From the NCBI GenBank assembly GCA_018666195.1, contig JABJAG010000221.1:1-45975 (forward strand): a stretch of DNA of 45,975 bases, read 5' to 3'. Made by a program: the position numbers and the translations under genes. The notes under the pieces were generated by a model. It worked only from the letters and a program-made list of their open reading frames with translations. It was not told where the DNA came from and did not search any database. Positions 6,033-44,270 of the stretch are shown one piece after another. Each line of letters begins with the position of its first letter. The first letter of the stretch is position 1. The stretch is from Alphaproteobacteria bacterium. Its GTDB lineage: Bacteria > Pseudomonadota > Alphaproteobacteria > UBA6615.

Positions 6033-6035
6033 TGG

Positions 6036-6072: not shown

Positions 6073-6112
6073 AACTAGCGGACGCGAACAGCGCCCGTCG
6101 ATAGATGTTGGA

Positions 6113-6745: not shown

Positions 6746-6782
6746 ATTTCCGTCTCCTTTTTTATTGTCCTTGCAGAGTCGC

Positions 6783-7484: not shown

Positions 7485-7735
7485 CTCTCAGCCCTGAATT
7501 GTTCGTATTTTGTTGCCGGTCCATATGTGACCTACATGCCGGTATGCCCTCAGTCGGGACAGCGCTGATAAACACCACCAAGCGTCCTGCTGTCAAACCC
7601 GGCAAGGGTCGGGAGGATGCCCAACCCGGGAAGACCTTCCTAGCACACAATACGCGGTCATCCGCTGCGCCCGCGCAATACTGCCCTGCACGGCCTGACT
7701 ATCAGAGACAATGCAGGGGGTTTAAGGTCCCGCAA

Positions 7736-8629: not shown

Positions 8630-9552
8630 ACAATCCATCAAATACTAATCGACGTATTCTTGGTTTACCCCGACAGGTCTGGGGCGGCATTTCGATGGCG
8701 GCAGGTGTGGCCTGCCTGGCAGGCAATCACTCGATCGTGCGGATCGTATCAGACGAAGTCGGTGCTTTCGAAACTTCGGCACTTCGATTCATGTGGGCCC
8801 TGCCATTGATGTTGCCCTGGATCCTGAAAGGCAAAGGAGAGGTCCTGCGGACCAAGCGTCATGGATTGCACTTTGTTTCAGCATCTCTGACCGCCATTAC
8901 CACAGCCCTTTTGTTTCTGGGCCTGGCTCATCTCCCTGTTGCTTTGGCGACAACGCTCAATTTTACCGCACCACTGTTTACGACCATTATGGCGGTGGTG
9001 CTTTTGAAAGAGCGCGTCGAGCTTGCGCGCTGGGCCGCAACCGTGGTCGGCTTTCTGGGAGTGGTGGTCATCCTGCGGCCGGGACTTGTGGTTTTTGACC
9101 CCGCAACACTTCTTCCGATCTGTTCGGCGGCTGTGCTCACCCTTTGGTACTTCACACTGAAACGACTGGGACGAACCGACTCAACCGCGACCATCACGGT
9201 CTATCAAACGATCTGGGCCTCGCTCGTGCTGTTTTTGCTGGCACTGCCGGAGTGGCAAACTCCCAGTTTCACAGCTCTTTGGCTGTCGATCGCCATGGCG
9301 GCTATGGGCACAGCCGCCATCTTCCTCATGGCCCGGGCTTTCGAGCTGGCGGATGCCTCGCTGATCGCCCCGTTCGACTATGCGCGCCTGCCGTTTGTGG
9401 CGCTGTTCGGTTACCTGCTATTTGATCAGATTCCAGATATCTACACAGTGCTGGGTGCCGCGATCATTATCGGCTCTGCTTTCTATATCGCGCGACGTGA
9501 ATCCCGTGCGACGCCGCCCCAGCTTGACTCCGGTGGCAGCAAAACGGGTTAA
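8626..9552 (+). CDS. DMT (EamA) family transporter
   Basis: 308 aa polytopic protein. ATGA start/stop overlap with the preceding DMT gene. Confidence 0.85.
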   Translation: MNNPSNTNRRILGLPRQVWGGISMAAGVACLAGNHSIVRIVSDEVGAFETSALRFMWALPLMLPWILKGKGEVLRTKRHGLHFVSASLTAITTALLFLGLAHLPVALATTLNFTAPLFTTIMAVVLLKERVELARWAATVVGFLGVVVILRPGLVVFDPATLLPICSAAVLTLWYFTLKRLGRTDSTATITVYQTIWASLVLFLLALPEWQTPSFTALWLSIAMAAMGTAAIFLMARAFELADASLIAPFDYARLPFVALFGYLLFDQIPDIYTVLGAAIIIGSAFYIARRESRATPPQLDSGGSKTG

Positions 9553-9573: not shown

Positions 9574-10659
9574 ATGGATTACGGCATTTTCAACCTGATG
9601 AACCGACGTCACCCGTCCCAGACGGTGTCCGAGGTCATCACGCAGACTGTTGAACAAGTACAGGCTGCAGAAACCGCCGGATTCGGTATTTCGTGGTTCA
9701 CCGAGCATCACTTTTCGAATTACTCGCTGTCGCCATCGCCATTGATGATGATCGGCCATGTGGCGCCCCAAACGGTGCGCATCCGTCTGGGATCCGCCGT
9801 CGTATTGCCCGCGCTATATCAGCCCGCCCGCCTGATGGGAGAAATCTCGTTTGCTGATTGCCTCGCCGAAGGACGCCTCGTGCTGGGCCTGGGCGCCGGC
9901 TATCAGGCTTATGAACTGGCCCGGTTTGGCGTCGAACTGTCAGAAGCCAGTGAAATCACCAATGAGTGGATCGACTTCCTCTCGAAAGGCCTGGGACAGG
10001 AATCCTTCGAATATCACGGCAAACATATCGACCTGCCTCAGACCTGGTTCACAGCACGGCCCGCGCAGGAGCCACGACCGGAAATCTGGATTGCTGGCAA
10101 CAGCCCCGGCTCCCAACAGCGCGCCGTGAAGGGCAATCATCCACTTTTCGTGTCCGGCTTCGGTCGGGACATCGAAACTCTCGCAGAAATAAGATCCGAG
10201 GCCGAGAACACCTGGCAGGCTGCCGGAAAGAGCCCGGACGATCTGCAATTCGGCACCCTGCGCTACTGCTTCGTCACCGACGACAAAGCCGAAGCTCTCG
10301 CCTTCGCCGAAAACGCGCGGTATCAGGTGCGACTGTCACGGTATCTGCGACGTGGCCAGACCGAGCTCAACGCGCCCTGGCTTCCCGAAGAGCCCTTCGA
10401 AGATGAGATGTCACCAGAAGACATTCTGGCGTGGAACCCGATCGGTGATGCGGAGACCGTCGCTGAAAAGCTGGTCGAGGAAATCGAACAGGTGCGCCCG
10501 GTCCACACCGCCCTCTACATGACCATGGGAGACACCTCGCATGATGCGGCGATGCGATCCATCGAGGCCTTTGGCGACAAGGTTGTCCCGCTGATCGAGA
10601 AAAGCGTTGGCCCGCTGGTGACTGCCGGAACCCCGCTACCGGCCTACGCGGCCCAGTAA
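9574..10659 (+). CDS. LLM-class (luciferase-like) flavin-dependent oxidoreductase
   Basis: 361 aa. N-terminus MDYGIFNLMN...AETAGFGISWFTEHHFSNY...RLGSAVVLPALYQP...LGLGAGY is typical of the bacterial luciferase-like monooxygenase fold. GGGAGA Shine-Dalgarno sequence upstream. Confidence 0.85.
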   Translation: MDYGIFNLMNRRHPSQTVSEVITQTVEQVQAAETAGFGISWFTEHHFSNYSLSPSPLMMIGHVAPQTVRIRLGSAVVLPALYQPARLMGEISFADCLAEGRLVLGLGAGYQAYELARFGVELSEASEITNEWIDFLSKGLGQESFEYHGKHIDLPQTWFTARPAQEPRPEIWIAGNSPGSQQRAVKGNHPLFVSGFGRDIETLAEIRSEAENTWQAAGKSPDDLQFGTLRYCFVTDDKAEALAFAENARYQVRLSRYLRRGQTELNAPWLPEEPFEDEMSPEDILAWNPIGDAETVAEKLVEEIEQVRPVHTALYMTMGDTSHDAAMRSIEAFGDKVVPLIEKSVGPLVTAGTPLPAYAAQ

Positions 10660-10666
10660 CCGCACC

Positions 10667-11470
10667 ATGCAGGTCACGGCCAACGGGATCGACTTTGTCT
10701 GCCAGATCGATGGTCCGGAGGGAGCACCCTGGCTGACCTTTTCAAATTCGCTCAACACCAATGTCTCGCTTTGGGACGAACAGGTCGCACTCCTGTCCGA
10801 CCGCTACCGCATCCTGCGCTACAACACCCGCGGCCACGACGGGACCGGCGCACCGCCGGGACCATGGGATCTGGAAGACCTCGCATCCGACATCGTCGCG
10901 CTGTGGGATGAACTGCACATCGCCACAAGCCACTTTGTCGGCCTGTCAATTGGCGGGATGACCGGGCAGGCCCTCGCGCTCGGCTGGCCAGAGCGGATCA
11001 ACGCCTTTGTTCTCGCCGACACACGAGCGGATTTTACCGGCGAGTTTGCGGCCACCGTCCCGGGAATGATCGAGAGCGTGGCCCGAGACGGCCTGGACTC
11101 ACTGGTCGAGGTGATGCCCCTGCGCTGGTTTACCGACAATGTGCGGGCTGCGCAGCCTGATCTCGTCGAACGCGCGCGACGGTTGATCGCCTCCAACACC
11201 GCCGATGGCTATATCGCCTGCGCGGGAGCCATGACCCGACTCAACTACATAGAACGCCTGCACGAGATAAATCTGCACACCCTGCTGATCTGTGGCGCAC
11301 AGGACCTGGGCACACCACCCGCCGGGATGCGCGAAATGGCAGCGCGAATTCCCAACGCCACTTATGTGGAAATTGACCCGGCCGGACATCTCTCGAATAT
11401 CGAGAACCCGGCAGCGTTCAACGCCGCGCTCTTTCCATTCCTCGATTCCTTTGATCGGGCGACCACGTGA
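10667..11470 (+). CDS. alpha/beta hydrolase, 3-oxoadipate enol-lactonase-like
   Basis: 267 aa. Nucleophile elbow GLSIGG and C-terminal His context (PAGHLSNIENP). Overall layout resembles PcaD-type lactonases. Confidence 0.8.
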   Translation: MQVTANGIDFVCQIDGPEGAPWLTFSNSLNTNVSLWDEQVALLSDRYRILRYNTRGHDGTGAPPGPWDLEDLASDIVALWDELHIATSHFVGLSIGGMTGQALALGWPERINAFVLADTRADFTGEFAATVPGMIESVARDGLDSLVEVMPLRWFTDNVRAAQPDLVERARRLIASNTADGYIACAGAMTRLNYIERLHEINLHTLLICGAQDLGTPPAGMREMAARIPNATYVEIDPAGHLSNIENPAAFNAALFPFLDSFDRATT

Positions 11471-12471
11471 ACGCACTTGCCGTCAAACCCCGGCCTGTCC
11501 TGCAGCCACCCGCACTCGTGGCGCATGCCGACTGGTCCATCGACCCACGAAAACGATCCATGGCACGCGCCGTGCGCATGGCCAACGGAAACTATCTCGC
11601 CCTTGCGCCAGAACCCGTCAGCAACCTCGATGATCTGTTCGCACGCCTGAAAGCTGCTTCCGGCGTGGGCGAAACCGCATTTGTCGGCTTTGACTTTCCG
11701 CTCGGCGTTCCACTGGCCTACGCCAAATCCGCGCGCCTTGATCGTTTCATGACAGCGTTACCCAAATTTGGACGGGGTGCGTGGAAACACTTCTATGACC
11801 CGGCCAATAGCGAAGATGAGATTTCACCCAAGCGCCCTTTCTATCCAAACCGGCCGGGCGGAACCCGACGCCAACAGCTGATCGACGCCCTGAAGCTGTC
11901 CGGCGCAAACGAGCTATTCCGGCAGTGTGATCATCCAACCGATTTGCGCTCCGCAGCCAACCCGATGTTTTGGACGATGGGTGCACAACAGGTCGGCAAA
12001 GCCGCGATTTCCGGCTGGCGCGACCTGATCGCACCGGCGTTGCGTCAGGATCAGACCCTTCATATCTGGCCGTTCGATGGCCGGCTCACAGAATTGCTGA
12101 CCCGGCCCGGAATCACGGTTGCCGAGACCTATCCGGGTGAGGTCTATGGCCACCTCAAACTGCAGATCGCAGCATCCAACAAATCCAAACTCAATATGGA
12201 TCATCGACGCGAAGATGCTTCGCGGCTTCTCGGCTGGGCAAACGAAAACAACGTGCAACTCTCTGCTGCACTGGCCAGTGATATCCGGGACGGGTTCGGA
12301 GACAGCTCAGATGGCGAGGACCGTTTCGATGCCACCGTTGGATTGTTCGGCATGCTCAATGTGATCTTCGGGCATCGAACATCCGGGGAACCTGCTACGC
12401 CCGTGGTCCGTCAGATCGAAGGCTGGATTCTGGGCCTGGACGCAAAGACCCTTAAGAGCCCTGCCCGCTAG
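11467..12471 (+). CDS. hypothetical protein, possibly DUF429 / RNase-H-fold family
   Basis: 334 aa with a GTG start overlapping the upstream stop (GTGA). Segments VGFDFPLGVP, FRQCD, ETYPGEVY and DRFDATVGLFGM resemble the DUF429 pattern. Recognition is weak. Confidence 0.5.
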   Translation: MNALAVKPRPVLQPPALVAHADWSIDPRKRSMARAVRMANGNYLALAPEPVSNLDDLFARLKAASGVGETAFVGFDFPLGVPLAYAKSARLDRFMTALPKFGRGAWKHFYDPANSEDEISPKRPFYPNRPGGTRRQQLIDALKLSGANELFRQCDHPTDLRSAANPMFWTMGAQQVGKAAISGWRDLIAPALRQDQTLHIWPFDGRLTELLTRPGITVAETYPGEVYGHLKLQIAASNKSKLNMDHRREDASRLLGWANENNVQLSAALASDIRDGFGDSSDGEDRFDATVGLFGMLNVIFGHRTSGEPATPVVRQIEGWILGLDAKTLKSPAR

Positions 12472-12518
12472 CGCCGTCCAATCGTGGGCACGAAACAAGA
12501 TGAAACGAGGAGAGAGTT

Positions 12519-13280
12519 ATGGATGTGAACGGCAAGTCAGCGATCATCACCGGCGGCGGTTCCGGCATCGGTGCAGAAGTTGCACGCCATTGTGCAAAGG
12601 CAGGCATGAAGGTTGCGCTGCTTGATGTAAACATGGACGGCGCAAACGCCGTCGCTGACGAGATCGGCGGCACTGCTGTGGAATGCGATGTCACAAGTTC
12701 TGACAGCGCCGAAACGGCCATCGCCGCAGCGCGCGCCGCCAACGGCGTCTCCAGTCTTCTTGTCAATTGTGCGGGCATCGCAACACCGGGACGTATCGTC
12801 GGACGCAATGGCCCGCTACCTCTGGAAGCTTTCGCCGCGGTCATTCAGGTCAATCTGATCGGTTCTTTCAACATGATCCGCTTGTTCGGTTCTGACCTCT
12901 ATGGCACCGACCCGATGGAGGACGGCGAACGCGGCCTGATCATCAACACGGCCTCCGTCGCGGCCACCGAGGGCCAGATTGGACAAGCAGCCTATGCGTC
13001 TTCCAAGGGCGGTATCGTTTCACTCACCCTGGTTGCCGCGCGTGAGTTCGCGTCACAGGGCATCCGGGTGAACACCATCGCGCCGGGCCTGATCGATACC
13101 CCGATGATGGCAGGACTGCCTGATGAAGCCCGCGCCAGTCTGGGTGAGCAGCCAGAGTTCCCCAAGCGTCTCGGTCGTCCAGATGAATACGCCAAACTGG
13201 TTATGCATATGTGTGACAATGTGCTGATCAATGGCACGGTGATGCGTCTCGACGGCGCGTTGCGCATGGGAGCCCGATAA
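12519..13280 (+). CDS. SDR family oxidoreductase (type II 3-hydroxyacyl-CoA dehydrogenase-like)
   Basis: 253 aa. Cofactor motif TGGGSGIG, NCAGI, catalytic YASSK and PGLIDTPM. Confidence 0.85.
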   Translation: MDVNGKSAIITGGGSGIGAEVARHCAKAGMKVALLDVNMDGANAVADEIGGTAVECDVTSSDSAETAIAAARAANGVSSLLVNCAGIATPGRIVGRNGPLPLEAFAAVIQVNLIGSFNMIRLFGSDLYGTDPMEDGERGLIINTASVAATEGQIGQAAYASSKGGIVSLTLVAAREFASQGIRVNTIAPGLIDTPMMAGLPDEARASLGEQPEFPKRLGRPDEYAKLVMHMCDNVLINGTVMRLDGALRMGAR

Positions 13281-29818: not shown

Positions 29819-30069
29819 TCTTTCCTCCCTGGATCAGGGCTGGAGAGTACACCGGATCAGAACACAAATTCGACCCGCAACCCGAAGATGGTCGAAGAAA
29901 ATTATCCGGAAATTTCATGCAATTCCGGCTCAAAAAGAACACGTACAAAACACACTTTCAGTATTAACAATGACCCGCTTTTTAGACGTCTGTATTTGGT
30001 TCTCTGCAGTGATCAAAAGTAATGTCCGTACATCAGTTAACAACCAGAACACAGCCGGCGGGAGCCAAC
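29819..30069. promoter_or_regulatory. AT-rich divergent control region (cupin gene <-> ParA-like gene)
   Basis: 251 nt, clearly AT-richer than its surroundings. Inverted repeat CCGGAA-N11-TTCCGG (29906..29928). Three AGAACAC copies (29859, 29936, 30046). GGAG Shine-Dalgarno sequence at 30061. Confidence 0.45.
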
Positions 30070-30777
30070 ATGAACATCCTTGCGCTGACATCGCAAAAGG
30101 GCGGATCGGGGAAAACCACCCTCGCAGGACATCTCGCCGTCGCCGCAGAGATCGCCGGCGCAGGCCCCGTTGCAATCATCGACACCGACCCCCAGGGCAG
30201 TCTGACCGACTGGTGGAACGAACGACACGCCAAGACACCATCATTTCTCAGCGCCTCGATCGCGACCCTCGCCGGAGATCTGGAGCGAGCGCGAAATCTT
30301 GGTTTCAAACTCGTGATTATCGACACACCCCCGGCGATCACCGACATGATCGAGCACGTCATCGGGCTGTCTGATCTCATCGCGATCCCCACGCGCCCCA
30401 GCCCGCATGATCTGCGAGCGGCCGGCACCACCATTTCGATGGTCGAGGCCGTTGGCAAACCTCTGGTTTTCATCATCAATGCCGCCAACCCGCGTGCCCG
30501 AATTACCGGGGAGGCTGCCGTCGTCCTGTCGCAACACGGCACCGTCGCGCCCGTGACCATTCATCAGCGAACGGATTTCGCCTCCAGCATGATCGATGGT
30601 CGCACGGTGATGGAACTCCCCCGCGCCGAACGCTCCTCAGATGAGGTATCCCGATTGTGGAACTATCTGCACGGCCGGTTTGAGCGACAAACCAAACCCA
30701 CTGTCATGTCAGATGGCTTCGCGCGCCTGACAGGCCTGCGTAACAACGGCACAATCCACTGGCCCGACGCGCGATGA
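30070..30777 (+). CDS. ParA/Soj-family ATPase (small, type Ib-like)
   Basis: ORF trimmed to MNILALTSQKGGSGKTTLAGHLA (deviant Walker A KGGSGKT). Has IIDTDPQGS and VIIDTPP (Walker B-like). 235 aa with no N-terminal HTH. Confidence 0.85.
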   Translation: MNILALTSQKGGSGKTTLAGHLAVAAEIAGAGPVAIIDTDPQGSLTDWWNERHAKTPSFLSASIATLAGDLERARNLGFKLVIIDTPPAITDMIEHVIGLSDLIAIPTRPSPHDLRAAGTTISMVEAVGKPLVFIINAANPRARITGEAAVVLSQHGTVAPVTIHQRTDFASSMIDGRTVMELPRAERSSDEVSRLWNYLHGRFERQTKPTVMSDGFARLTGLRNNGTIHWPDAR

Positions 30778-31195: not shown

Positions 31196-31981
31196 ATGCC
31201 TGATCCCAACATAAAAACCGATCCGATTGCCCGTCCGGCACCCGCTGCATCTCTGGCCGCAATCACCATCAGCCGGAAGATGACGGAAACGCCCGAACAT
31301 TGTCCGGGAGAACCCAACACCCGCGCCCAGGACGCCGCTCCGGTGGCACTCGTTCCGACCAACGATGACAGTCCGGTTTCCGTCCGCCATCATCCTCAGC
31401 CACCTCAGGCGTTTCGCGCCCCGCGGCACGTAGCCAACTTCCGCAATCCGCAGCAAGACCTTCCCGCATATGCTGCAACGCCATCAACCTCAGGTCATGA
31501 TATCGCGCCTGCTGCAATCATCGATTTGTGGGAGCACCTGGCGGGCGAACACCTCAGGCCCAAGCTGCAGGAACTGGACTCATTGACGATTGCGCGCCAG
31601 TGGCCAAACAGCCTTTTGCTTCGGGTGACGGAGCACGGTCGACGTCCGGCCCTCGAAGTTGCCCATATGTTTGTTCCCACTTCGGGAGGTCCGACTGTTC
31701 CCATCCCGATCGATGCCATGACAGTCGACTGGATCGTCGCATTGGGTCGCGAAGTGGTCGTGACTGAAAGCCCGGTTCATGAAACCGATGCTGTGCCCAC
31801 AGGAAACGGACCGATAAACTGCGGTGTGATTGCACTTCCCTTTGGCCCTCGGAGCAGCGTGGATCACGTCCTCTGTCACCTCTATCGGGTCGATGAGACA
31901 GTGCTCGAAGGTGACGCCGTGTTGGAGCTCCGCATGCCGCCACGTGACCGAAAGGGCATCAAGCGCCTGTTTGGCTACTAA
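31196..31981 (+). CDS. hypothetical protein, Pro-rich N-terminus + PAS_5 (DUF1457)-like C-terminal domain
   Basis: 261 aa. The C-terminal roughly 150 aa (DLWEHLAGEHLRPKLQELD...LLLRV...VIALPFG...VDHVLCHLY) resemble the alphaproteobacterial PAS_5 pattern. Weak call made by eye. Confidence 0.45.
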   Translation: MPDPNIKTDPIARPAPAASLAAITISRKMTETPEHCPGEPNTRAQDAAPVALVPTNDDSPVSVRHHPQPPQAFRAPRHVANFRNPQQDLPAYAATPSTSGHDIAPAAIIDLWEHLAGEHLRPKLQELDSLTIARQWPNSLLLRVTEHGRRPALEVAHMFVPTSGGPTVPIPIDAMTVDWIVALGREVVVTESPVHETDAVPTGNGPINCGVIALPFGPRSSVDHVLCHLYRVDETVLEGDAVLELRMPPRDRKGIKRLFGY

Positions 31982-34786: not shown

Positions 34787-35296
34787 ATGGGCACTGACGG
34801 AAGTTCTGCGGCAAACGCAGATATCGATATCGGAAAATTCTGGAACGCGGTGGGGCAACGCGCCGTGGCCGCAACGATTGTGACCGCACGAGGCAGCGCC
34901 GGGCCAGCCGGATTTCTGGGCCTTTCAGCCACCCATGTCTGTGCTGCCCCGCCAACCATGCTGGTCTCCATCGATGCAAAAACCTCCGCGCTGGGTGCGA
35001 TCCGGGATTCGCGGCATTTCGCGATCAACTACCTGCCAGGCGGAACGGAAGACGTGGTCGATCTCTTCTCCGGGAAAAGCGACATCAAGGGCCCTGCCCG
35101 TTTTGAGGCGAACCGATGGGGTTATCTGGCAACCGGCGCGCCTGTGTTCAATGGCGCCGTTGGCGTGATGGATTGCATCCTGGAAGAAACCATCGAGCGA
35201 CACGGAACCATTCTTGCCCTCGGTCGCGTGGTCGCAGTTTCCGGTGACCCGGAAGCGGATCCGCTGGTGTATTTCCGAGGTGGTTACCTGACCTGA
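34787..35296 (+). CDS. flavin reductase family protein (FMN-binding split barrel)
   Basis: 169 aa. Pattern VTARGSAGPAGFLGLSATHVCAAPPTMLVSID ... RHFAINYL ... FNGAVGVMDCILEE is typical of HpaC/NtaB-like reductase components. Confidence 0.85.
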   Translation: MGTDGSSAANADIDIGKFWNAVGQRAVAATIVTARGSAGPAGFLGLSATHVCAAPPTMLVSIDAKTSALGAIRDSRHFAINYLPGGTEDVVDLFSGKSDIKGPARFEANRWGYLATGAPVFNGAVGVMDCILEETIERHGTILALGRVVAVSGDPEADPLVYFRGGYLT

Positions 35297-35305
35297 TCCA
35301 CCGCG

Positions 35306-36655
35306 TTACTGCGCCGCCTGATCTTCGACTTCAGCAAAAAACTGATTTTCGGGGCGGGGCAAACCAAGGTTTTCACGCAAGGTGGGGCCTTCATATTCAC
35401 GGCGCAGCAGCCCACGACGCTGTAGCTCTGGTGCGACACGATCCACGAACAGATCGAGACCTTCGGGCAGGAACGGGAACATAATCGTAAAGCCATCACT
35501 GGCACGGTTTTCGATCCACTCTTCCATTTCATCGGCAATGGTCTCGGACGTACCAACCAACGCAAGACCGGAATAACCGCCCATCCGCTGCGCCAGCTCT
35601 CTGACAGTCAGATCTTCTTGTTCGGCCATGCGAATGGCCCGCTCGCGGCCACTTTTGGAGGCATTGGACTCGGGAATCTCAGGCAGCGGACCATCAAGCT
35701 CGAACTTCGACGCGTCGGTCCCAAGCTGAATCGACAGTGATGCAATTGCACTATCCAGATGCACTTTGGAATCCAGCACAGCACGTTTCTCGCGCGCTTC
35801 CTCAACCGTATCGCCAACCACAACAAGACAGGCCGGCAGAATTTTCAGATGATCAGGATCGCGACCGAGTGTTTTCATCCGGCCCTTCACATCCGCATAA
35901 AACGCGCGCCCGTCTTCCATCGTGCGTTGGGCTGCAAAAATGGCATCTGCAGTTTCTGCTGCCAGCTGCCGTCCGGCTTCCGAGCCACCGGCCTGAACAA
36001 TCAGGGGCCAACCCTGAACCGGTCGTCCAATATGCAATGGACCACGAACATTAAAGTACTCCCCCTTGTGATCGAGTGTATGGAGTTTCTCCGGATCGAA
36101 GAAAACACCGGATTCCACATCGCGAATGAATGCATCATCCGCCCAACTGTCCCACAGGCCGGTCACCACGTCGTAAAATTCACGGGCACGTCGGTAGCGG
36201 TCAGCGTGATCGAGATGCTCATCCAAACCAAAATTTTTCGCCGCATCCGGGTTTGAAGTTGTGACGATATTCCAGCCAGCGCGCCCACCCGAAATATGAT
36301 CGAGTGAGGCAAACCGGCGCGCCACATGAAACGGGTCATCAAAGGACGTCGAACCGGTCGCAATCAGGCCGAGATTTTCTGTTGCCATGGATAACGCGGA
36401 CAACAGCGTGAATGGTTCAAACGATGTCGCTGTCGAACTGCGCTTGAGCGCATCCATCGGCATGTTCAGAAGGGCGAGATGATCAGCCATGAAAAAGGCA
36501 TCGAACCGCGCCTCTTCAAGTCGCTGAGCAAACTTCACAATGGCCCGGAAGTTGAAGTTCGCATCGGGCGTGCCGCCGGGGTAACGCCAGGCCCCGGTGT
36601 GGATGCTGATCGGGCGCATGAATGCCGCAAGATGAAGCTGTCGTGAAGCCGTCAT
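35306..36655 (-). CDS. FMN-dependent monooxygenase, NtaA/SnaA/DszA (LLM) family
   Basis: 449 aa. LHLAAFMRPISIHTGAWRYP ... FDAFFMADHLAL ... GRAGWNIVTS-like motif (GRAGWNIVTTSN). Confidence 0.9.
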   Translation of the reverse strand: MTASRQLHLAAFMRPISIHTGAWRYPGGTPDANFNFRAIVKFAQRLEEARFDAFFMADHLALLNMPMDALKRSSTATSFEPFTLLSALSMATENLGLIATGSTSFDDPFHVARRFASLDHISGGRAGWNIVTTSNPDAAKNFGLDEHLDHADRYRRAREFYDVVTGLWDSWADDAFIRDVESGVFFDPEKLHTLDHKGEYFNVRGPLHIGRPVQGWPLIVQAGGSEAGRQLAAETADAIFAAQRTMEDGRAFYADVKGRMKTLGRDPDHLKILPACLVVVGDTVEEAREKRAVLDSKVHLDSAIASLSIQLGTDASKFELDGPLPEIPESNASKSGRERAIRMAEQEDLTVRELAQRMGGYSGLALVGTSETIADEMEEWIENRASDGFTIMFPFLPEGLDLFVDRVAPELQRRGLLRREYEGPTLRENLGLPRPENQFFAEVEDQAAQ

Positions 36656-36712: not shown

Positions 36713-39028
36713 TCAATCCAGAGGCCCGAAATCCGGAGGTGACACCCGTCGCCGGGAGACAGCCTCATAAGCTGATGCAATTCGCAGCAAACTGTCCTCC
36801 GTACCCGGCTCCGAGCGGAACACGAGCGAGAACGGCAGTCCCGGTGCCGCCAACGCAGTGGGCTCCCGCGACGGCGAGGAAACATACTTTGTTCCATCTT
36901 CATTCAACTTGTAGACAGGGTCGTAAGCTGTCGAGACATAACCGGCAGGGACCAACATTTCAGTCAGGCCCGCGTTCGGGCCATAGAGGCTCTCGGGTCG
37001 CAAATTGTTGGACGTATCGTGCTGCAATGGGCCACCAATAATTCCGGGTGGCCATGGCGTGTGCAGACGCACGAACGCGTTCAGATTGTTCTCGATCAGC
37101 ACCATCATATCAACACGGCGGAGCAGCTCGCGCAGCATGATCCGCTCATTCACGCCCTGGCGCCCATCAAGCGCATTGCGAGGGTCAGAGGTTTCCTCCC
37201 AGTTCAGGAACCCTGAACGCTGGTCGTCGCCCCAGAACTTGGACCGCGCGTTCAAGGCGGCCCAATTGTCGAGTGCCTCATGGAAACCTGCCGCCTTCCA
37301 ATCTTCCGCCCGGCGCATCAGATACTGACTGATATGAAAACGGAAGGTCGTTGCAAGTTCCTGGTGCTGGATCGTTGCGATGTCGAAATTGGCCGGCGGC
37401 TCGACGGCTCCTTCGGCGAGTGCAACACAATAATCAATGGAATCCATCGTACCCTTGCCGAAGGTTTTCCCCGGCTGGAATTCCGTCGGACGGATCGCGT
37501 CTTCAAACTCCTTAAATAAAGGCGTCCCATCCGGGGCCAGACGGAAAAGCACATCCGGCATGAAAACCGGCAGAAGCTTTGCCAGCGCCCGCCGGAAGTC
37601 GGGCACCAACTGCTCCATGTCCGGATCCGGTGTCCAGAGCAAATCACCGGACTCGACCAGTGTGGCCCCCAGTCGCCCACCAAGGACATCCTTGATCTCG
37701 GCTGTTACGGCATCGACGATGGGTTTCTCGGTCAGAGAGTCCTTTGGATAGACCATCGACTCCCGCACCACGCCGAGGCGAATGCCCTTGAGCGCGCCGG
37801 CCGAAACATCATTGGAAAGGTGGGACGCATAGGGCGTATCGAGAACGGAGGAACGCGGCACGGTTGTATAGGGGTCACGCGGGTCATAATAACCGTTCTC
37901 GGAATCCTTGAGCGCATCAAGAATCTTCGCGCAATCGGGCAGCGAGCGGCCGTGAATACCTGAGCGATCGCAATAGATGTCCGCGCCAATCGCACCACCA
38001 TCAAAGCCGAGCATCGACTTGTGGGGCAGGATCAGGGCCACCGAATTGTGATTGGAGGGACCACGGCAGGAGGCGCGGGTTTCCTCACCCAAACTCGCCA
38101 TCACCAGATTGGTACTGACCGACAGAGCCGAGCCCGAACTCGATCCCAAAGAGGCCGCACGGGTCGTGTCATAGGGGTTAGAAGGATTTCCGCCCCAGGT
38201 CGCCCGCTGATAGCCCAGCGTCGAAGGCAACACCTTGTCCGGGTGATTGCGACCACCCGGATCGCCAGCACGGCCGTTATATTCCGTGTTCACAGCCTTG
38301 GCGAAAATGATCGCACCCTTTCTGCGCAGCTGGTCAACCAGCACGTGATCACGGGCGGGGAAATCATTGTCGTAGGCAGCATCCGCACCCCCGGTGGAGC
38401 GCATATCTATCGTGTCGAAGGGATCCTTAAAGGAGAAGGTCACCCCATACATCGGCAAGGCATCCAAATCGGGTTCGGTGCCATATTCCGCGTCCAGTTC
38501 TGCCGCTCGCTCGAGCGCATCAGGGAACTGTCGGAACATCTCGCACACCGGCGGTGCGCCAGCCGGGAGCGGTCCCTCAGAAGGGTTCTTGTCGAATTCA
38601 CCCCAGCAGGTAACCGAACGTTCGCCACGGATATTGAGGGTGGATAAAGCGTTGACCTGCCCGGCGCTGGGAACGCCGGCAATCATACCAAACTGCTGTT
38701 CGACATCCGGCTTGGAGGCCGTGGCCTCCATACGCCCGTATTCCAGCGGTGGACCTTTGTATTTGTCCAGATCAGGCAGAACGTCTGATACGGGAATGGT
38801 CTCGGTCGGAAATTTCAGCGGGGCGCCAGCACGCACGACGCCCGTGGACGCCGGGACGGATTTGCCGTCCTCCGTCACCAGCATGCTGGAAACACCATTA
38901 TAGGCCCGAGCACGATCAATATACTGCTGCACAACCGCAACCAGCGTGGTTTCCCCCGCGCGAATAGCTGCGTGCAAATCGTCGATTGAAGCCTCAACGA
39001 CGTCAAATTTATCCGAACCCGTTCCCAT
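36713..39028 (-). CDS. amidase-signature family protein, unusually large (771 aa)
   Basis: Start chosen at the ATG at 39028, with GAGGGA Shine-Dalgarno 5-6 nt upstream. Lys motif FSFKDPFDT and a Gly/Ser-rich signature SLGSSSGSALSVSTNLVMASLGEETRASCRGPS. Carries large extra N-terminal and C-terminal regions. Confidence 0.85.
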   Translation of the reverse strand: MGTGSDKFDVVEASIDDLHAAIRAGETTLVAVVQQYIDRARAYNGVSSMLVTEDGKSVPASTGVVRAGAPLKFPTETIPVSDVLPDLDKYKGPPLEYGRMEATASKPDVEQQFGMIAGVPSAGQVNALSTLNIRGERSVTCWGEFDKNPSEGPLPAGAPPVCEMFRQFPDALERAAELDAEYGTEPDLDALPMYGVTFSFKDPFDTIDMRSTGGADAAYDNDFPARDHVLVDQLRRKGAIIFAKAVNTEYNGRAGDPGGRNHPDKVLPSTLGYQRATWGGNPSNPYDTTRAASLGSSSGSALSVSTNLVMASLGEETRASCRGPSNHNSVALILPHKSMLGFDGGAIGADIYCDRSGIHGRSLPDCAKILDALKDSENGYYDPRDPYTTVPRSSVLDTPYASHLSNDVSAGALKGIRLGVVRESMVYPKDSLTEKPIVDAVTAEIKDVLGGRLGATLVESGDLLWTPDPDMEQLVPDFRRALAKLLPVFMPDVLFRLAPDGTPLFKEFEDAIRPTEFQPGKTFGKGTMDSIDYCVALAEGAVEPPANFDIATIQHQELATTFRFHISQYLMRRAEDWKAAGFHEALDNWAALNARSKFWGDDQRSGFLNWEETSDPRNALDGRQGVNERIMLRELLRRVDMMVLIENNLNAFVRLHTPWPPGIIGGPLQHDTSNNLRPESLYGPNAGLTEMLVPAGYVSTAYDPVYKLNEDGTKYVSSPSREPTALAAPGLPFSLVFRSEPGTEDSLLRIASAYEAVSRRRVSPPDFGPLD

Positions 39029-39029
39029 T

Positions 39030-39098
39030 ACGTCCCTCATGAATTGATTGGACCAATGATGTCTGGGCCAAACCAAAAAATCCAGTCATGAGGGACGT
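39030..39098 (-). promoter_or_regulatory. 13-bp perfect inverted repeat / RNA hairpin covering the amidase ribosome-binding site
   Basis: ACGTCCCTCATGA (39030..39042) and TCATGAGGGACGT (39086..39098) are exact reverse complements 43 nt apart. In the minus-strand mRNA the 3-prime arm contains the GAGGGA Shine-Dalgarno and ends 1 nt before the amidase ATG. Confidence 0.5.
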
Positions 39099-39112: not shown

Positions 39113-40399
39113 TTAAGCCTTGGAAAGCGCCTGATCGAGATCTGCGATAATGTCATCAGCGTGCTCGATCCCGATCGACAACCGCACATAACCCGGTGTG
39201 ACACCGGCTTGCAGCAGTTCCTCTGCCTGCATCTGACTGTGGGTCGTTGACGCCGGATGAATGGCCAGAGAGCGTGCATCACCAATATTGGCCACGTGAT
39301 AGAGCAGCTCCAGGGCATCGATAAACTTCTTGCCCGCTTCCAGACCGCCCTTCACTTCGATTCCGACCAGACCGCCGTAACCGCCATTCAGATGTGCATC
39401 CGCACGTTGACGGGATTCACCATCCATCAGACCCGGATAGATCACACGCTCGACCTTGTCATGACCATCAAGGAACGCAGAAACCCTAGCTGCGTTTTCG
39501 CAATGGCGCTCCATACGCAGCGGCAACGTTTCCAGGCCCTGAATGAACTGGAATGCGTTCTGAGGCGACATGGCCGCACCGATGTCACGCAACAGCGTGA
39601 CACGTGCCTTGAGAATGTAGGCAATCGGCCCCAGCGGCTTCACCGCCTCTGTCCAGACGGCACCGTGATAACTCGGATCCGGTTCGTTCAGCATCGGGAA
39701 ACGGTCTGCATGGGCTTCCCAGTCAAAATTACCGCCATCGATCAGCATGCCGCCAATCGAGGTGCCGTGACCGCCGATATATTTGGTGGTCGAGTACATG
39801 ACGATAGCCGCACCGTGATCGAGCGGTCGGCACAGCAAAGGTGCCGCCGTGTTGTCCATGATCAATGGCACCCCAAGCTCACGGCCGATGGCTGCGACGT
39901 CTGCAATCGGGAACACTTGCAGTTTCGGGTTCGGCAGGGTTTCGGCGTAGTAGGCGCGCGTCTTGTCATCCGTCGCAGCCCGGAAGGCTTCCGGGTCGGC
40001 CGGGTCCACGAAGCGGGCTTCAATCCCCATGTCGCGCATGGTGTTCTTAAACAGATTCCACGTGCCGCCATAGATGTCTGTGGAGCAGACAAAATTGTCG
40101 CCCGCGCGCGCGATGTTCAGAATCGAGAACATAGATGCTGACTGGCCCGATGACAGGCCAAGTGCGGCAACACCGCCCTCGATCGCAGCCAGCCGCTGCT
40201 CGAGCACATCCACGGTCGGGTTCATGATCCGGGTGTAAATGTTCCCCAGTTCCGCCAGTGCAAACAGGTTTCCTGCATGTTCGGTATCGCGGAACTGGTA
40301 GCTCGTCGTCTGATGAATCGGCACGGCAACCGACCCGGTGGTCGGGTCAGCACGATGGCCGGCATGCAAAGCGAGTGTCTCGGGGTGCTTGGTTGTCAT
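39113..40399 (-). CDS. metY: O-acetylhomoserine aminocarboxypropyltransferase / sulfhydrylase (PLP-dependent)
   Basis: ORF trimmed to MTTKHPETLALHAGHRADPTTGSVAVPIHQTTSY. Has STTKYIGGHG (PLP-Lys) and the C-terminal LSIGIEHADDIIADL typical of the Cys/Met-metabolism PLP family, MetY type. AGGAG Shine-Dalgarno upstream. Confidence 0.9.
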   Translation of the reverse strand: MTTKHPETLALHAGHRADPTTGSVAVPIHQTTSYQFRDTEHAGNLFALAELGNIYTRIMNPTVDVLEQRLAAIEGGVAALGLSSGQSASMFSILNIARAGDNFVCSTDIYGGTWNLFKNTMRDMGIEARFVDPADPEAFRAATDDKTRAYYAETLPNPKLQVFPIADVAAIGRELGVPLIMDNTAAPLLCRPLDHGAAIVMYSTTKYIGGHGTSIGGMLIDGGNFDWEAHADRFPMLNEPDPSYHGAVWTEAVKPLGPIAYILKARVTLLRDIGAAMSPQNAFQFIQGLETLPLRMERHCENAARVSAFLDGHDKVERVIYPGLMDGESRQRADAHLNGGYGGLVGIEVKGGLEAGKKFIDALELLYHVANIGDARSLAIHPASTTHSQMQAEELLQAGVTPGYVRLSIGIEHADDIIADLDQALSKA

Positions 40400-40491
40400 A
40401 GTCGAACTCCTGATCTTCGTGCGTGTGCCATAGCCAGCCAGAACGCCGCCCCTATTACACATGTATTTTGGTGTTATTATTCTGTTAATAC

Positions 40492-40545: not shown

Positions 40546-41241
40546 TTACCAATCGAATCCTGGCCCTGAACGCGCCGCCCCGTCATGCAGATCAAGGCAG
40601 CGATTCATCCAGGCGTGGATTGGGTCGTCAGGCGTGACCAGCGCGAAGGGGCTCATCTTGCGTGCCCAGATAAAAGTGCCCATGACCAGATAGTCGGCAT
40701 AGAGCGGCGCAGCACCTCCCAGAAACGGCTGATCGGCCAGCATCTGGCGCAGCGGACCCAACCGTTCGCGGAGCTCAACCCGGCGTTCCTCCCGCCCCTT
40801 CTCCAACGCGACGATGCTATTTCCGAAACGCTTCGCCCGGGTTTCGGCAAACCAGTCCTTGTCCTCCGGCACGAGATGATCGTGGATATCCCGCAGGATC
40901 ATCGGCATCACGAACAAATGCAGTCGCGTCCGCCACCATTGGCTGACAAAGGCCGTGAGGGCATGACCTGCGGCACCTCCAAACAGGGAGGGCCGGTCGG
41001 GATAGGTTGTTTCGAGATACTCTGCGATGGCCCAGCTGTCGCAGACCCAGGTCTCGCCGTCACGGATTACCGGCAGAGTCGGAAAAGAGCCGTCACCTAT
41101 CCTCGGGATGCTCGTAAACGGTGTCGGAACGGTTTCGAATGAGAGACCCTTGTGGGCCAACGCCGGGCGTATGCGCCAGCAATGGCTGGAAAACCGGCGG
41201 TCATCCGCACCAACCAGATCATAGAGAACGATCCTAGACAT
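40546..41241 (-). CDS. glutathione S-transferase family protein
   Basis: 231 aa. Thioredoxin-like N-terminal domain (IVLYDL...SSHCWRIRPALAHKGLSFETV...FPTLPVIRDGETWVCDSWAIAEYLE) plus a helical C-terminal domain. Starts 8 nt after the NHase alpha stop. Confidence 0.8.
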   Translation of the reverse strand: MSRIVLYDLVGADDRRFSSHCWRIRPALAHKGLSFETVPTPFTSIPRIGDGSFPTLPVIRDGETWVCDSWAIAEYLETTYPDRPSLFGGAAGHALTAFVSQWWRTRLHLFVMPMILRDIHDHLVPEDKDWFAETRAKRFGNSIVALEKGREERRVELRERLGPLRQMLADQPFLGGAAPLYADYLVMGTFIWARKMSPFALVTPDDPIHAWMNRCLDLHDGAARSGPGFDW

Positions 41242-41249
41242 CAGAGCGG

Positions 41250-41894
41250 TCAGGCAGGTTCAACCGGCAGCGCGCATCCGACCACAGAATCACGGGTGAT
41301 CAGCGCGGCGAGATCGTCTTCGCTCAGGCCTTCTGTGCCCGCGGGGCGCATGGGCATGATCACGTAACGCAGATCCGCATTGCTGTCGTGAACGGCAATA
41401 TCGACGGCATCGGGAATATCCACGCCGAATTCGCGCAACACCTTGCGCGGCTCGCGCACAGCCCGGGACCGATAGGCCTTGCTGACATAGAAGGCCGGAG
41501 GTTCCCCGAGCAAAGATCGCGGATAACAGGAACACAGGGTGCACACGACCATATTGTGCCGCTTCGGGGTGTTTTCGATGGTCACAAGCGCAGCTTCGGT
41601 GGCCTCAATACCAAGTTCGGCAGCCGCGGCCTTGGTATCGCTCAGCATCCGTTCTTTGTATGCGGGGTCGACCCAAGCTCGGGCAATCATCCGGGCGGCC
41701 TGATGCGGGCTGCCGCGCTCGTTGAATTCCATACGGGCGCGAATCTCATCCGCCGTCATCACCCCCTGCTCGATCAGCAGGCTCTTCAACGCGAGAAAGC
41801 GCGCCTCACCTTCGGTGAGTTCAAGGTCATCATCCTCGCGGGTTGGTGCATGGTCGTCATGATCGTGATCATGATTGTGTTCGTCACCGTTCAT
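41250..41894 (-). CDS. nitrile hydratase family alpha subunit, cobalt-type metal site, His/Asp-rich N-terminal tail
   Basis: Start at MNGDEHNHDHDHDDH, where its ATG shares one base with the upstream stop (TGATG). Metal motif VVCTLCSCYPR. Collinear with Co-NHase alpha (LIEQGV, AWVDPAYKERML, YRSRAVREPRKVL, RPAGTEGLSEDDLAALITRDS). Confidence 0.9.
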   Translation of the reverse strand: MNGDEHNHDHDHDDHAPTREDDDLELTEGEARFLALKSLLIEQGVMTADEIRARMEFNERGSPHQAARMIARAWVDPAYKERMLSDTKAAAAELGIEATEAALVTIENTPKRHNMVVCTLCSCYPRSLLGEPPAFYVSKAYRSRAVREPRKVLREFGVDIPDAVDIAVHDSNADLRYVIMPMRPAGTEGLSEDDLAALITRDSVVGCALPVEPA

Positions 41895-42199
41895 CACGAA
41901 TCCTCTCCGGCCGGAGCCAGCCAATGATCATAGATTTCAATTTCGAGAACATCTCCGGGCGCGCCGTCATAATCGGGCCAGATATCATCCTGTCTGAACT
42001 GCACCCGATACAACGGAATCGGCGGCAGACCCCAGCGGCCATAGGCCTTGTCCTCCGGGTTTTCGAACAAGCCGCAGAAGCGTTCAATGGTGCCCGTCTT
42101 ATGGCGCACATAAGTCGGGGTACGCACATGGCCGGGCTTGCCGATATCAAGGATACGCACCCTGTCTCCCACGCTATAGCTTGCGGTTGGCTCAGACAT
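41894..42199 (-). CDS. nitrile hydratase beta subunit, C-terminal-half protein (101 aa)
   Basis: MSEPTASYSVGDRVRILDIGKPGHVRTPTYVRHKTGTI...PLYRVQF...IW matches the C-terminal SH3-like half of NHase beta. Its start overlaps the upstream stop by 8 nt (ATGTCTGA). Confidence 0.85.
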   Translation of the reverse strand: MSEPTASYSVGDRVRILDIGKPGHVRTPTYVRHKTGTIERFCGLFENPEDKAYGRWGLPPIPLYRVQFRQDDIWPDYDGAPGDVLEIEIYDHWLAPAGEDS

Positions 42200-42509
42200 G
42201 ATCCCGTGTCCCTGCCGCCAGAATTTCCTGGGCTCGCTTGTCGAACGTATCCGCGTCGAGCACACCCTTCTCGATCAACAACCGGATCATCCCATCAAGG
42301 CGCCGACCATAGAATGTCGAGTTGGCGTAATATTCAGCGGGCATCTCTTCCACCGTGCGGCGGAATTCATCGGTGACGACGACACCCTTCACCTGCAGCA
42401 GATTGAAGGCAGCGATCATCTGCTTTTCCCAAAACAACTGATCGCGATCCTCCTGAGGCACGGCCCCGGCCGGTTCACCGCCAATATCGGTTACGAGCTT
42501 GTCCACCAT
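42192..42509 (-). CDS. nitrile hydratase beta subunit, N-terminal-half protein (105 aa)
   Basis: MVDKLVTDIGGEPAG...LFWEKQMIAAFNLL...DEFRRTVEEMPAEYYANSTFYGRRLDGMIRLLIEKGVL matches the helical N-terminal half of NHase beta. AGGA Shine-Dalgarno upstream. Confidence 0.85.
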   Translation of the reverse strand: MVDKLVTDIGGEPAGAVPQEDRDQLFWEKQMIAAFNLLQVKGVVVTDEFRRTVEEMPAEYYANSTFYGRRLDGMIRLLIEKGVLDADTFDKRAQEILAAGTRDHV

Positions 42510-42543: not shown

Positions 42544-42819
42544 TCAAAGGCGTCGGTACAGTTTCACCGCCGAATAGAGCGCCGCCAGAGTTGCCACGAA
42601 AAACCCGCCAAACAACGCGACGGGTGAGACGTCCCATGCAAATTGTCGGGCGAGATCGTAAACAACATAGATTGAAAATGTCAGCGCCAGACCGAGCATG
42701 AATGTCTTGCCGCGCAGCGCAATCACCAGAAAAATGCCGGCAATCACGGCCTCAAGTGCGATGGAGACGAATTGAAGGTTTTCGATCATAGCTGAAAGCC
42801 TACCCCAATCCGTCTCCAC
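42544..42819 (-). CDS. hypothetical small membrane protein (3 TM, 91 aa)
   Basis: GTG start preceded by an AAGGA Shine-Dalgarno that overlaps the ALDH stop codon. An alternative ATG lies at 42789. Three hydrophobic segments, no known motif. Confidence 0.55.
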   Translation of the reverse strand: METDWGRLSAMIENLQFVSIALEAVIAGIFLVIALRGKTFMLGLALTFSIYVVYDLARQFAWDVSPVALFGGFFVATLAALYSAVKLYRRL

Positions 42820-42827
42820 GCGAGTCC

Positions 42828-44270
42828 TTAAAGGCCAGCCTGGGTGATGAACTTGGTGTTCAGGTAGGCATCGATGGCCTCCGAACCACCTTCCGAGCCA
42901 TAGCCCGAATCCTTGACACCACCGAACGGTGTTTCGATCAACCCGATCCCATGATGGTTGATCGAGACCATGCCGCTTTCAAATGCCGAGCCAATAGCTT
43001 CGGCGGTCTTTGTGGACTTGGTGTAAGCATAAGCGGCCAGCCCGTAATCAAGGCGATTGGCTTCGGCGACAACGGCATCAAAATCCGAGAAGGATGAGAT
43101 CGGTGCGACCGGACCAAACGGCTCTTCATTCATGATCCGGGCATCCAGCGGCACATCTGTCATCACCGTCGGCTCAAAGAAGTAACCCTTGTTGCCCTTG
43201 CGCTTGCCACCCGTCTGAAGTGTGGCGCCCTTGCCAACGGCATCAGAGACAAAGCCCTCGATCGCATCGATCCGACGGTCATGCGCCAGCGGGCCCATCT
43301 TGTTGTCCGGGTCCATGCCATCACCGACCGGCAGAGTGGATGCGAATTCGGTGAAGCCCTCAACGAACCGGTCATAATGCTTTTCGTGGACCAGGAAGCG
43401 GGTCGGGGACACGCAGACCTGTCCGGCATTGCGGAATTTGTTGGCCGTCAGCACCTTGAGCGCAACTTCCACATCTGCATCTTCAAACACAATGGCCGGA
43501 GAATGGCCACCCAGTTCCATGGTCACCCGCTTCATGTGCTGACCGGCCAGCGCCGCCAACTGTTTGCCAACGGCTGTCGAGCCGGTGAAGGTCACCTTGC
43601 GAATGGTGCGATGGGGAATCAGATACTCGGAAATCTCCGCCGGGACGCCATATACCAGATTGACCACACCGTCGGGCAGCCCAGCATCAACGAAGCATCG
43701 GACCAATGCCGCGCAACTCGCAGGGGTCTCTTCCGGGCCCTTCAGAATGATCGAGCAACCTGCCGCAACAGCGCCCGAGAGTTTACGAACAGCCTGATTG
43801 ATCGGGAAGTTCCAGGGCGTGAAGGCCGCGACCGGACCCACCGGCTCTTTCACCACCATCTGAGTCACGCCACCCATACGCGCCGGGATCACCCAACCAT
43901 ATGTCCGGCGGGCTTCTTCAGCGAACCAATCGATAATGTCGGCCCCAAACAGGGTTTCAAGCTTGGCTTCGCCAAGCGGCTTGCCCTGCTCCATCGTCAT
44001 CATCGCGCCAATTTCATCGGCGCGCTCGCGAACCAGATTGGCCGCTTTGCGCATGACGTTGTAACGCTCCATCGCGGAGACTTCTTTCCAAACGCGGAAA
44101 CCCGTTTCTGCTGCTTCCAGGGCAGCATCCAGATCCGCGATCCGGGCATGGGCCACATTGCCGATCGGCTCTTCGGTCGCCGGGTTGAGAACGTCGATCG
44201 TCTCTCCGGCCGCAGCTGGCATCCATTTGCCGGCGATGTGAAGTTCGGTGTTCGGGTAGGCGTTGGTCAT
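42828..44270 (-). CDS. NAD(P)-dependent aldehyde dehydrogenase, succinate-semialdehyde dehydrogenase-like
   Basis: 480 aa. [20 protein letters not shown], catalytic Glu MELGGHSP, catalytic Cys [21 protein letters not shown]. Confidence 0.9.

Follow-up and report, generated by a model that had tools for sequence, protein, structure and literature searches.

Split-beta members of the nitrile hydratase (NHase) family, in which the N- and C-terminal halves of the beta subunit are separate polypeptides (beta-N and beta-C), are the closest described systems in layout to a three-gene cobalt-type NHase encoded by an uncultured marine alphaproteobacterium (GTDB lineage UBA6615; assembly GCA_018666195.1, contig JABJAG010000221.1, positions 1 to 45,975; this whole stretch of 45,975 nucleotides (nt) is hereafter the window). 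Thiocyanate hydrolase (SCNase) of Thiobacillus thioparus has the gene order scnB-scnA-scnC. Toyocamycin nitrile hydratase (TNH, ToyJKL) is an (alpha-beta-gamma)2 complex with subunits of 21.2, 10, and 11.4 kDa (PMC8574189), and toyJKL of Streptomyces rimosus is located within the toy cluster (PMC12648386). Among bacterial three-subunit NHases not encoded in a biosynthetic cluster, only that of Streptomyces canus CGMCC 13662 has been studied biochemically; it matures activator-free (PMC7329996). Its genes are arranged anhD-anhE-anhA, without an activator, and the AnhD-AnhE-AnhA enzyme hydrates acetamiprid, thiacloprid, and benzonitrile (PMC7329996; PMC13243292).

The window genes share with ToyJKL and AnhDEA the separate small beta-N and beta-C, the alpha gene in last position, the cobalt-type site, the lack of a dedicated activator gene, and subunits of about 21-24, 10-12, and 10-12 kDa (PMC7329996; PMC8574189). 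The three-subunit organization (beta-N, beta-C, alpha, no activator; PMC7329996) is thus found in the window, and the classical organization, a single beta of ~220-230 amino acids (aa) accompanied by an activator gene, is not. The likeness to ToyJKL and AnhDEA is one of layout; the sequence proxy is a locus from a Streptomyces metagenome-assembled genome (MAG; L008), with a 57% identical alpha, a split beta, and the motif CSCYPRS. ToyJKL belongs to an antibiotic biosynthetic cluster and the known substrates of the S. canus enzyme are xenobiotic N-cyano and aromatic nitriles, whereas the window genes are part of a catabolic run that includes an amidase.

The preferred reading, given a probability of about 65%, is that these genes encode a functional heterotrimeric cobalt NHase of a split-beta/CSCYPR clade, acting in a nitrile-to-amide-to-acid module for nitrogen scavenging. 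Both the three-gene layout and the active-site Arg are normal for this large and little-studied NHase branch, and the enzyme is an uncharacterized member of a known enzyme type.

Gene organization and domain assignment

The three genes and two features of the alpha subunit are as follows.

42192..42509, minus strand: NHase beta-N (105 aa); PF21006, 51.2 bits, E = 1.6e-13; N-terminal NHase-beta domain only
41894..42199, minus strand: NHase beta-C (101 aa); PF02211, 74.8 bits, E = 7.6e-21; C-terminal SH3-like domain only
41250..41894, minus strand: cobalt-type NHase alpha (214 aa); PF02979, 251.7 bits (cut-off 27.2), E = 4e-75
41514..41549, minus strand: metal-binding claw VVCTLCSCYPRS, alpha residues 116-127, read from the sequence
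41850..41888, minus strand: His/Asp-rich N-terminal tail of alpha, GDEHNHDHDHDDH, residues 3-15

On the minus strand, beta-N, beta-C, and alpha are consecutive, with overlapping junctions. The beta-N stop and the beta-C start overlap by 8 nt in different frames (ATGTCTGA, 42199..42192), and the beta-C stop overlaps the alpha ATG in TGATG (41896..41892), with a Shine-Dalgarno-like GGAGAGGA placed 6 nt 5′ of that ATG. Both beta halves possess a start of their own, preceded by a purine-rich run. On the full-length beta model TIGR03888, beta-N spans positions 4-103 and beta-C spans 136-226, such that ~32 linker positions (104-135) have no counterpart in either half. The PDB matches of beta-N are NHase beta chains and SCNase beta. 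Public annotation names alpha correctly, calls beta-C either “SH3-like domain-containing protein” or “nitrile hydratase subunit beta”, and labels beta-N a “hypothetical protein”.

The original prediction, made from the DNA sequence alone, had described a three-gene, split-beta cobalt-type NHase with halves of 105 and 101 aa, coupled junctions, a linker that is simply absent, and an intact cobalt-type site in alpha. Profile hidden Markov model searches match all three subunits to NHase-family models (PF21006, PF02211, and PF02979) and bear this out; the junctions lie exactly where they had been placed, the gap of ~32 positions in TIGR03888 coverage agrees with the missing linker, and the claw is confirmed at alpha residues 116-127. 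The subunit sizes attributed to ToyJKL also agree with the published 21.2, 10, and 11.4 kDa (PMC8574189).

Conservation and phylogeny of the split-beta clade

Close relatives were compared in 11 independent genomic contexts. Separate beta-N and beta-C genes precede alpha in 11/11 of these, and CSCYPRS is present in 120/120 of the closest alpha homologues (71-100% identity). The comparison was extended by a scan, with one genome per species, of the 80 nearest relatives (alpha 46-71% identical), a sample skewed both by the patterns searched for and by having been ranked on likeness to the query. These relatives span Alpha-, Beta-, and Gammaproteobacteria, Rubrobacteria, Streptomyces, Chloroflexota, Binatia, Nitrospinota, and others. 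Beta-N and beta-C occupy different stop-free segments in 71/80 of these species, with CSCYPR in 71/71. None of the four CSCYPW loci among the 80 is split: both beta halves share one open reading frame (ORF) downstream of alpha in L078, and only the C-half was detected in the other three. Among 150 family representatives (50% identity clusters), which form a less biased set, the post-CSCYP position is Arg in 53 and Trp in 26.

A neighbor-joining (NJ) tree of 94 alphas (203 columns, rooted on the Fe-type, without support values) has a classical cobalt branch composed of the Pseudonocardia thermophila NHase (PtNHase) and the CSCYPW loci, and a second branch that takes in all split/Arg loci, SCNase gamma joining at its base on a long branch. 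The window falls in the latter, apart from the classical branch, in a tight subclade with L001-L007 and L087-L090. Clustered at 90% identity, this subclade numbers at least 120 groups, most of them from marine and soil Alphaproteobacteria, and it is recognized by the beta-N motif FYGRR.

The beta split is ancient and maintained, and the Arg is a hallmark of the whole split-beta clade rather than a marker of thiocyanate use. The original prediction had taken this Arg as a sign of an unconventional substrate, such as thiocyanate or a deazapurine nitrile. That argument is unsupported, because the Arg is clade-wide (120/120 homologues, 71/71 split loci, and 53/150 representatives) and the characterized split enzyme takes ordinary nitriles; across the NHase family at large, Arg is common (53 Arg vs 26 Trp), which the original prediction had itself listed as a result that would tell against it. 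A weaker version of the idea survives on other grounds, namely a polar or anionic substrate, by way of an extra beta-N Arg in place of Pt Trp72 and the nearby carboxylate transporters described below.

Variation in gene architecture extends beyond the split. In 6 of ~75 loci (including L013, 10741-11020, and L083, 10685-10970), a beta-N-like gene is found downstream of alpha, which makes the gene order beta-C, alpha, beta-N or adds a further copy; this could be a permutation or a beta-N-derived activator. Many of the family representatives P0121-P0270 are 300-520 aa long and match beta profiles as well as alpha, as natural beta-alpha fusions that include Arg-type members. The NHase family has apparently been split and fused repeatedly. 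The “beta-N + alpha” class may be a profile artifact and is not relied on.

Metal site and substrate pocket

The reference sequences used for the three T. thioparus SCNase subunits, P. thermophila NHase beta, and Rhodococcus erythropolis Fe-NHase alpha each match a PDB chain exactly, and the P. thermophila alpha reference was checked over residues 10-198. The identities of the window subunits to these references are as follows.

Alpha: PtNHase alpha 46.5%, Fe-type alpha 43.5%, SCNase gamma 39.9%
Beta-C: SCNase alpha 40%, Pt beta C-half 35.6%
Beta-N: SCNase beta 28%, Pt beta 28%

The alpha claw, C-T-L-C-S-C, contains the Thr that marks the cobalt type and employs Cys118, Cys121, Ser122, and Cys123 as ligands; Arg126 occupies the position of SCNase gammaArg136 and of the Trp in Co-NHases. 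The claw VVCTLCSCYPRS is invariant in 29 subclade members and in 120/120 of the best homologues. In all NHases, two beta arginines hydrogen-bond the oxidized cysteines. Both are intact in the window enzyme but reside on separate polypeptides. Beta-N Arg50 aligns with P. thermophila betaArg52 and is kept in 81/81 beta-N sequences; beta-C carries His24 and Arg26, of which Arg26 aligns with P. thermophila betaArg157, and its column reaches at least 90% conservation across the loci (90% consensus, H.R).

The best alpha similarity is to the classical Co-NHases (P. thermophila 1IRE, Pseudomonas putida 3QXE, and Bacillus 2DPP; 46.5% identity, 182-199 bits), with which the window enzyme shares an identical VCTLCSC cobalt claw and both conserved beta arginines. 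In contrast, beta in the classical enzymes is one chain of ~220-230 aa that includes a linker; these enzymes are activator-dependent and form a separate tree branch, with Trp after CSCYP and a hydrophobic Y-Y-W-H-W pocket.

The beta-N side of the pocket was compared in an alignment of the 81 beta-N sequences with the verified PDB references. Three positions set the window subclade apart from most of the split set.

Pt Tyr68 position: Phe or Leu in the window subclade; Tyr in 65/81 of the split set; Tyr in SCNase
Pt Trp70 position: Gly in the window subclade; Glu in 65/81 of the split set; Gly in SCNase
Pt Trp72 position: Arg70 in the window subclade; Trp in 56/81 of the split set; Trp in SCNase

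The corresponding motif is FYGRR (F66-Y-G-R69-R70) in the window subclade, YYERW in most split enzymes, YYGRW in SCNase, and YYWHW in PtNHase. Two further arginines are features of most split-type enzymes and SCNase: Arg51, which follows the canonical Arg (75/81), and Arg69, at the Pt His71 position (Arg in 72/81). The combination of alpha Arg126 with beta-N Arg69-Arg70, lacking the Tyr68 and Trp72 equivalents, suggests a small polar or anionic nitrile as substrate, e.g., a cyano-carboxylate or a cyano-amino acid. Such a substrate would be favored by a pocket rich in Arg and depleted in Tyr and Trp, and it fits the recurrence of carboxylate transporters near the genes.

Maturation

Within the His/Asp-rich tail of the subclade alphas, His15 is invariant, and conservation reaches at least 90% at His8 and His12. 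SCNase gamma (MSADHDHDHDHDHDH) and the other split-clade alphas shown have comparable tails, which the two classical alphas aligned lack. No activator, CobW, or cobalt transporter family is represented among the window genes scanned. The tail may be the enzyme's own means of capturing cobalt, in place of an activator. The missing activator gene, the His-rich tail, and the published work on S. canus (PMC7329996) together point to activator-free maturation.

Genomic neighborhood

The genes around the NHase are as follows.

42828..44270, minus strand: aldehyde dehydrogenase (succinate-semialdehyde dehydrogenase-like); PF00171, E = 1e-160; TIGR01780 483.6 bits, below the cut-off of 646
42544..42819, minus strand: 91-aa hydrophobic, probably membrane protein; no significant Pfam/NCBIfam match
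40546..41241, minus strand: glutathione S-transferase (GST)-family protein; GST_C_7 and GST_N; beta-etherase model 183.9 bits vs a cut-off of 440
39113..40462, minus strand: O-acetylhomoserine sulfhydrylase (MetY type); TIGR01326 609 bits, cut-off 495
36713..39076, minus strand: long amidase-signature enzyme, 771-787 aa by start choice; PF01425, E = 1e-22
35306-36655, minus strand: NtaA/DmoA-family FMN-dependent monooxygenase; 550 bits, above cut-off; end of the NHase gene run
34787-35296, divergent from the monooxygenase: flavin reductase

The minus-strand run reads enolase-superfamily (MR_MLE), CMD/AhpD-like, aldehyde dehydrogenase, 91-aa protein, beta-N, beta-C, alpha, GST, MetY, amidase, NtaA/DmoA; the flavin reductase and an EamA transporter gene diverge from it. 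The aldehyde dehydrogenase heads the tightly packed part, its stop lying 8 nt from the small membrane gene, which in turn lies 34 nt upstream of beta-N. Gaps from the dehydrogenase through GST are 8-34 nt, and the gap before MetY is larger (about 85-150 nt). Between 35 and 46 kb, promoter-like sites occur at chance level (5 found vs 4.6 expected), and no terminator-like site was found between the NHase genes. The operon limits are inferred from gene spacing.

The GST gene, which begins 8 nt after the alpha stop, is probably co-transcribed with the NHase. Among the loci, it is seen only in L003 and L004, the Fram Strait contigs that represent the marine lineage. A glutathione-related protein is found beside an NHase twice independently, as a GFA-family gene upstream in L005 (8799-9290) and as the GST downstream in the window; this may be chance, or it may hint at thiol chemistry acting on the substrate. 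MetY is near the NHase in the marine lineage only, and its linkage to the NHase is uncertain. An Rfam scan of the whole window, including the MetY leader, gave no match to a S-adenosylmethionine riboswitch, which would mark MetY as housekeeping, or to any other family.

The Pfam amidase model covers only residues 184-441 of the long amidase, and its PDB matches are all distant, the best being a peptide amidase (57.7 bits), which gives no clue to the substrate. The long amidase itself represents an uncharacterized enzyme family, kept beside the NHase in the marine lineage and in Aquabacter. The monooxygenase, MetY, and GST genes may lend the cluster an organosulfur/organonitrogen scavenging flavor.

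The window arrangement is kept in L003 and L004 (alpha 93% identical), but with a peptidase_S9 gene in place of the dehydrogenase and of the 91-aa gene, which has no tblastn match in any locus. The most telling comparison is with an Aquabacter MAG (L007; alpha 71% identical), in which a 69.5% identical long amidase (10643-12985) directly follows alpha, there is no GST or MetY, and a helix-turn-helix-cupin regulator and an NMT1-type ATP-binding cassette (ABC) binding protein are encoded upstream. A C-N hydrolase adjoins the NHase in 8/11 subclade contexts. These hydrolases are the long amidase in the window and L007, AtzG-like/amidase (AtzE-like)/AtzH-like sets with TctC or SDF transporters in L001 and L088, a CN_hydrolase in L005 and L092, and hydantoinase A/B in two further subclade contigs. 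Uptake genes for carboxylates or small anions recur, with TctC in four contexts, SDF in one, and an NMT1-type ABC binding protein in one. The literature search returned no paper linking NHase to AtzE/G/H-like genes or describing the marine clade.

An odd pairing is found on one of the two hydantoinase contigs, which holds P0059; there, a class-II aminoacyl-tRNA synthetase paralogue (tRNA_anti-codon and tRNA-synt_2, 471 aa) begins 15 nt after alpha and is followed by hydantoinase A and B genes. The synthetase paralogue and the hydantoinases may hint at an amino-acid amide product.

Elsewhere in the window, four EamA-family transporter genes with a CoA-transferase gene among them are located within 5.5 kb (4210-9552). 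Next come a second luciferase-like monooxygenase gene (9574-10659) and two genes for alpha/beta-hydrolases. At 30022-30777, a gene for a ParA/CbiA/VirC1-like P-loop ATPase precedes a 261-aa ORF without a family match (31196-31981); the pair could represent a partition module or the edge of an island, where housekeeping genes give way to the catabolic cluster.

Proposed function

The complex is probably (alpha-betaN-betaC)n. A non-corrin Co(III) would be held in alpha by Cys118, Cys121, Ser122, and Cys123, with two of the cysteines oxidized in accord with established NHase chemistry and hydrogen-bonded by beta-N Arg50 and beta-C Arg26. A cobalt-bound nitrile would then be hydrated to the amide. 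Maturation would probably proceed without a separate activator, the His-rich alpha tail and/or beta-N serving as a substitute, as reported for the S. canus enzyme. The ~780-aa amidase is the probable partner that hydrolyzes the amide product to the acid and ammonia, a step proposed on the basis of the conserved neighborhood.

Several points weigh against this reading. The alpha subunit scores 242.2 bits against TIGR01323, the NCBIfam NHase-alpha equivalog, and marginally misses the cut-off of 249.85, which fits a distinct subfamily. The catalytic Tyr described as strictly conserved (Pt betaTyr68) is Phe or Leu in the subclade beta-N, a substitution that could mean altered chemistry, and the pocket assignments come from sequence alignment to PtNHase rather than from a model of the complex. 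No hydrolase is near the NHase in 3/11 subclade contexts (L087, L089/L091, and L090). Across the wider split clade, 131 downstream neighbors from ~75 loci were compared with Pfam and no partner is enriched (4 amidases and 2 CN_hydrolases); with no dominant partner, family-wide context does not reveal the substrate. What the sequence data show directly is limited to the domains, the ligands, both arginines, and the conservation of the split.

Alternative functions

A bolder reading of the same cluster, judged unlikely, is that the FYGRR subclade is a dedicated enzyme for a natural charged nitrile and that the cluster is an undescribed route in marine bacterioplankton, carrying cyanide-derived or thiocyanate-type C-N compounds into amino-acid metabolism. 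Candidate substrates may include gamma-cyano-alpha-aminobutyrate, beta-cyanoalanine, a cyano-carboxylate, or an organic thiocyanate, and the route may comprise the NHase, GST, MetY, long amidase, and NtaA/DmoA-type monooxygenase.

Cyanide assimilation would be a specific scheme in which MetY forms gamma-cyano-alpha-aminobutyrate from cyanide and O-acetylhomoserine, the NHase converts it to glutamine, and the amidase deamidates the latter; by analogy, beta-cyanoalanine would be converted to asparagine. Some O-acetylhomoserine sulfhydrylases do form gamma-cyano-alpha-aminobutyrate from cyanide. MetY, NHase, and amidase share one gene run, the Arg-rich pocket would suit an amino-acid carboxylate, and subclade contexts contain amino-acid/dicarboxylate transporter genes (SDF, Opp, and TctC) as well as the synthetase paralogue after alpha. 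However, MetY is adjacent in the marine lineage only (window, L003, and L004) and absent from the other 10 contexts, a weak promoter-like site lies in the stretch of about 85-150 nt that separates it from GST, and it scores as an ordinary O-acetylhomoserine/O-acetylserine sulfhydrylase. The scheme is considered quite improbable.

The window enzyme could instead be an orthologue of SCNase, converting SCN− to carbonyl sulfide (COS) and NH3, with the resulting sulfide assimilated by the neighboring O-acetylhomoserine sulfhydrylase two genes downstream. As the original prediction had noted, the architecture is alike, and so are the subunit sizes. The matched segments are 2dd4_B residues 47-127 for beta-N, 2dd4_A 35-124 for beta-C, and 2dd4_C 4-220 for alpha, with E-values far beyond chance, placing the split of the T. 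thioparus enzyme at the same place. The Arg that the original prediction placed three residues after gammaCys133 is also right, as PDB 2dd4 chain C reads C128-T-L-C131-S-C133-Y-P-R136; no paper mentioning SCNase Arg136 was found in the open literature. Arg126 aligns with this residue, beta-N Arg50-Arg51 aligns with SCNase beta Arg91-Arg92 as an Arg-Arg pair after a “DEF/EE” motif, Y-G-R is common to both beta-N-like subunits, and both enzymes have a His-rich alpha/gamma N-terminus. A NitT/TauT-type ABC system adjoins the L007 homologue, as it does scnABC in T. thioparus (PMC5328954).

These likenesses are outweighed on several counts, and the SCNase assignment is regarded as very doubtful. The shared Arg is not diagnostic, given its presence in 71/71 split loci. 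Alpha scores 200.6 bits against TIGR03887 (SCNase gamma) and misses the cut-off of 291.45, the NHase-alpha model scoring higher; it is also nearer to the classical Co-NHase alpha (46.5%) than to SCNase gamma (39.9%), whose long basal NJ branch lies far from the window subclade. The 40-aa beta N-extension and the 12-aa gamma insertion of SCNase are absent. SCNase beta Arg90, Tyr108, and Trp112, which presumably line its pocket, correspond to Phe49, Phe66, and Arg70 in the window beta-N. The conserved neighbors are amidases, which SCNase chemistry does not need, rather than cyanase or sulfur oxidation genes; no Pro_CA-type COS hydrolase or sulfur-oxidation gene is found among the annotated window genes, and MetY is linked in the marine lineage only.

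A ToyJKL-like tailoring enzyme that hydrates a 7-cyano-7-deazapurine (a toyocamycin or preQ0-type nitrile) would match the window in three-subunit layout and sizes (PMC8574189), but there are no deazapurine biosynthesis or purine-salvage genes (toyB/C/D/M equivalents) in the 46-kb window, the neighborhood is catabolic in contrast to the toy cluster that houses S. rimosus toyJKL (PMC12648386), and the nearest Streptomyces locus (L008) is only 57% identical, so this function is extremely improbable.

The chance that the genes are an artifact or a frameshifted, decaying ordinary beta gene is negligible: a single indel could in principle join the ORFs, which overlap by 8 nt in different frames, but orthologue comparison refutes this, as the original prediction had anticipated, with the two-ORF layout kept in 11/11 subclade contexts and 71/80 nearest species from many phyla with varied junction geometry, an own start with a purine-rich run for each half, ~32 linker positions wholly missing, and the catalytic Arg retained in both halves.

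Significance

The current understanding of NHases is not overturned by this locus. Within one branch of the family, which is very large, broad in phylogeny, and hardly studied so far, three genes are the rule; the layout is not a curiosity of Thiobacillus or Streptomyces. The labeling of beta-N as a “hypothetical protein” in public annotation means that NHase potential is under-counted in genomes and metagenomes. The remaining interest lies in the unusual beta-N pocket of the subclade and in its conserved, uncharacterized ~780-aa amidase partner. For enzymology, the subclade is a natural experiment in which the beta Tyr is replaced by Phe, a pocket Trp is replaced by Arg, and no activator is encoded. 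For ecology, the substrate, if identified, would reveal a nitrile that Alphaproteobacteria of sea and soil exploit as a nitrogen source.

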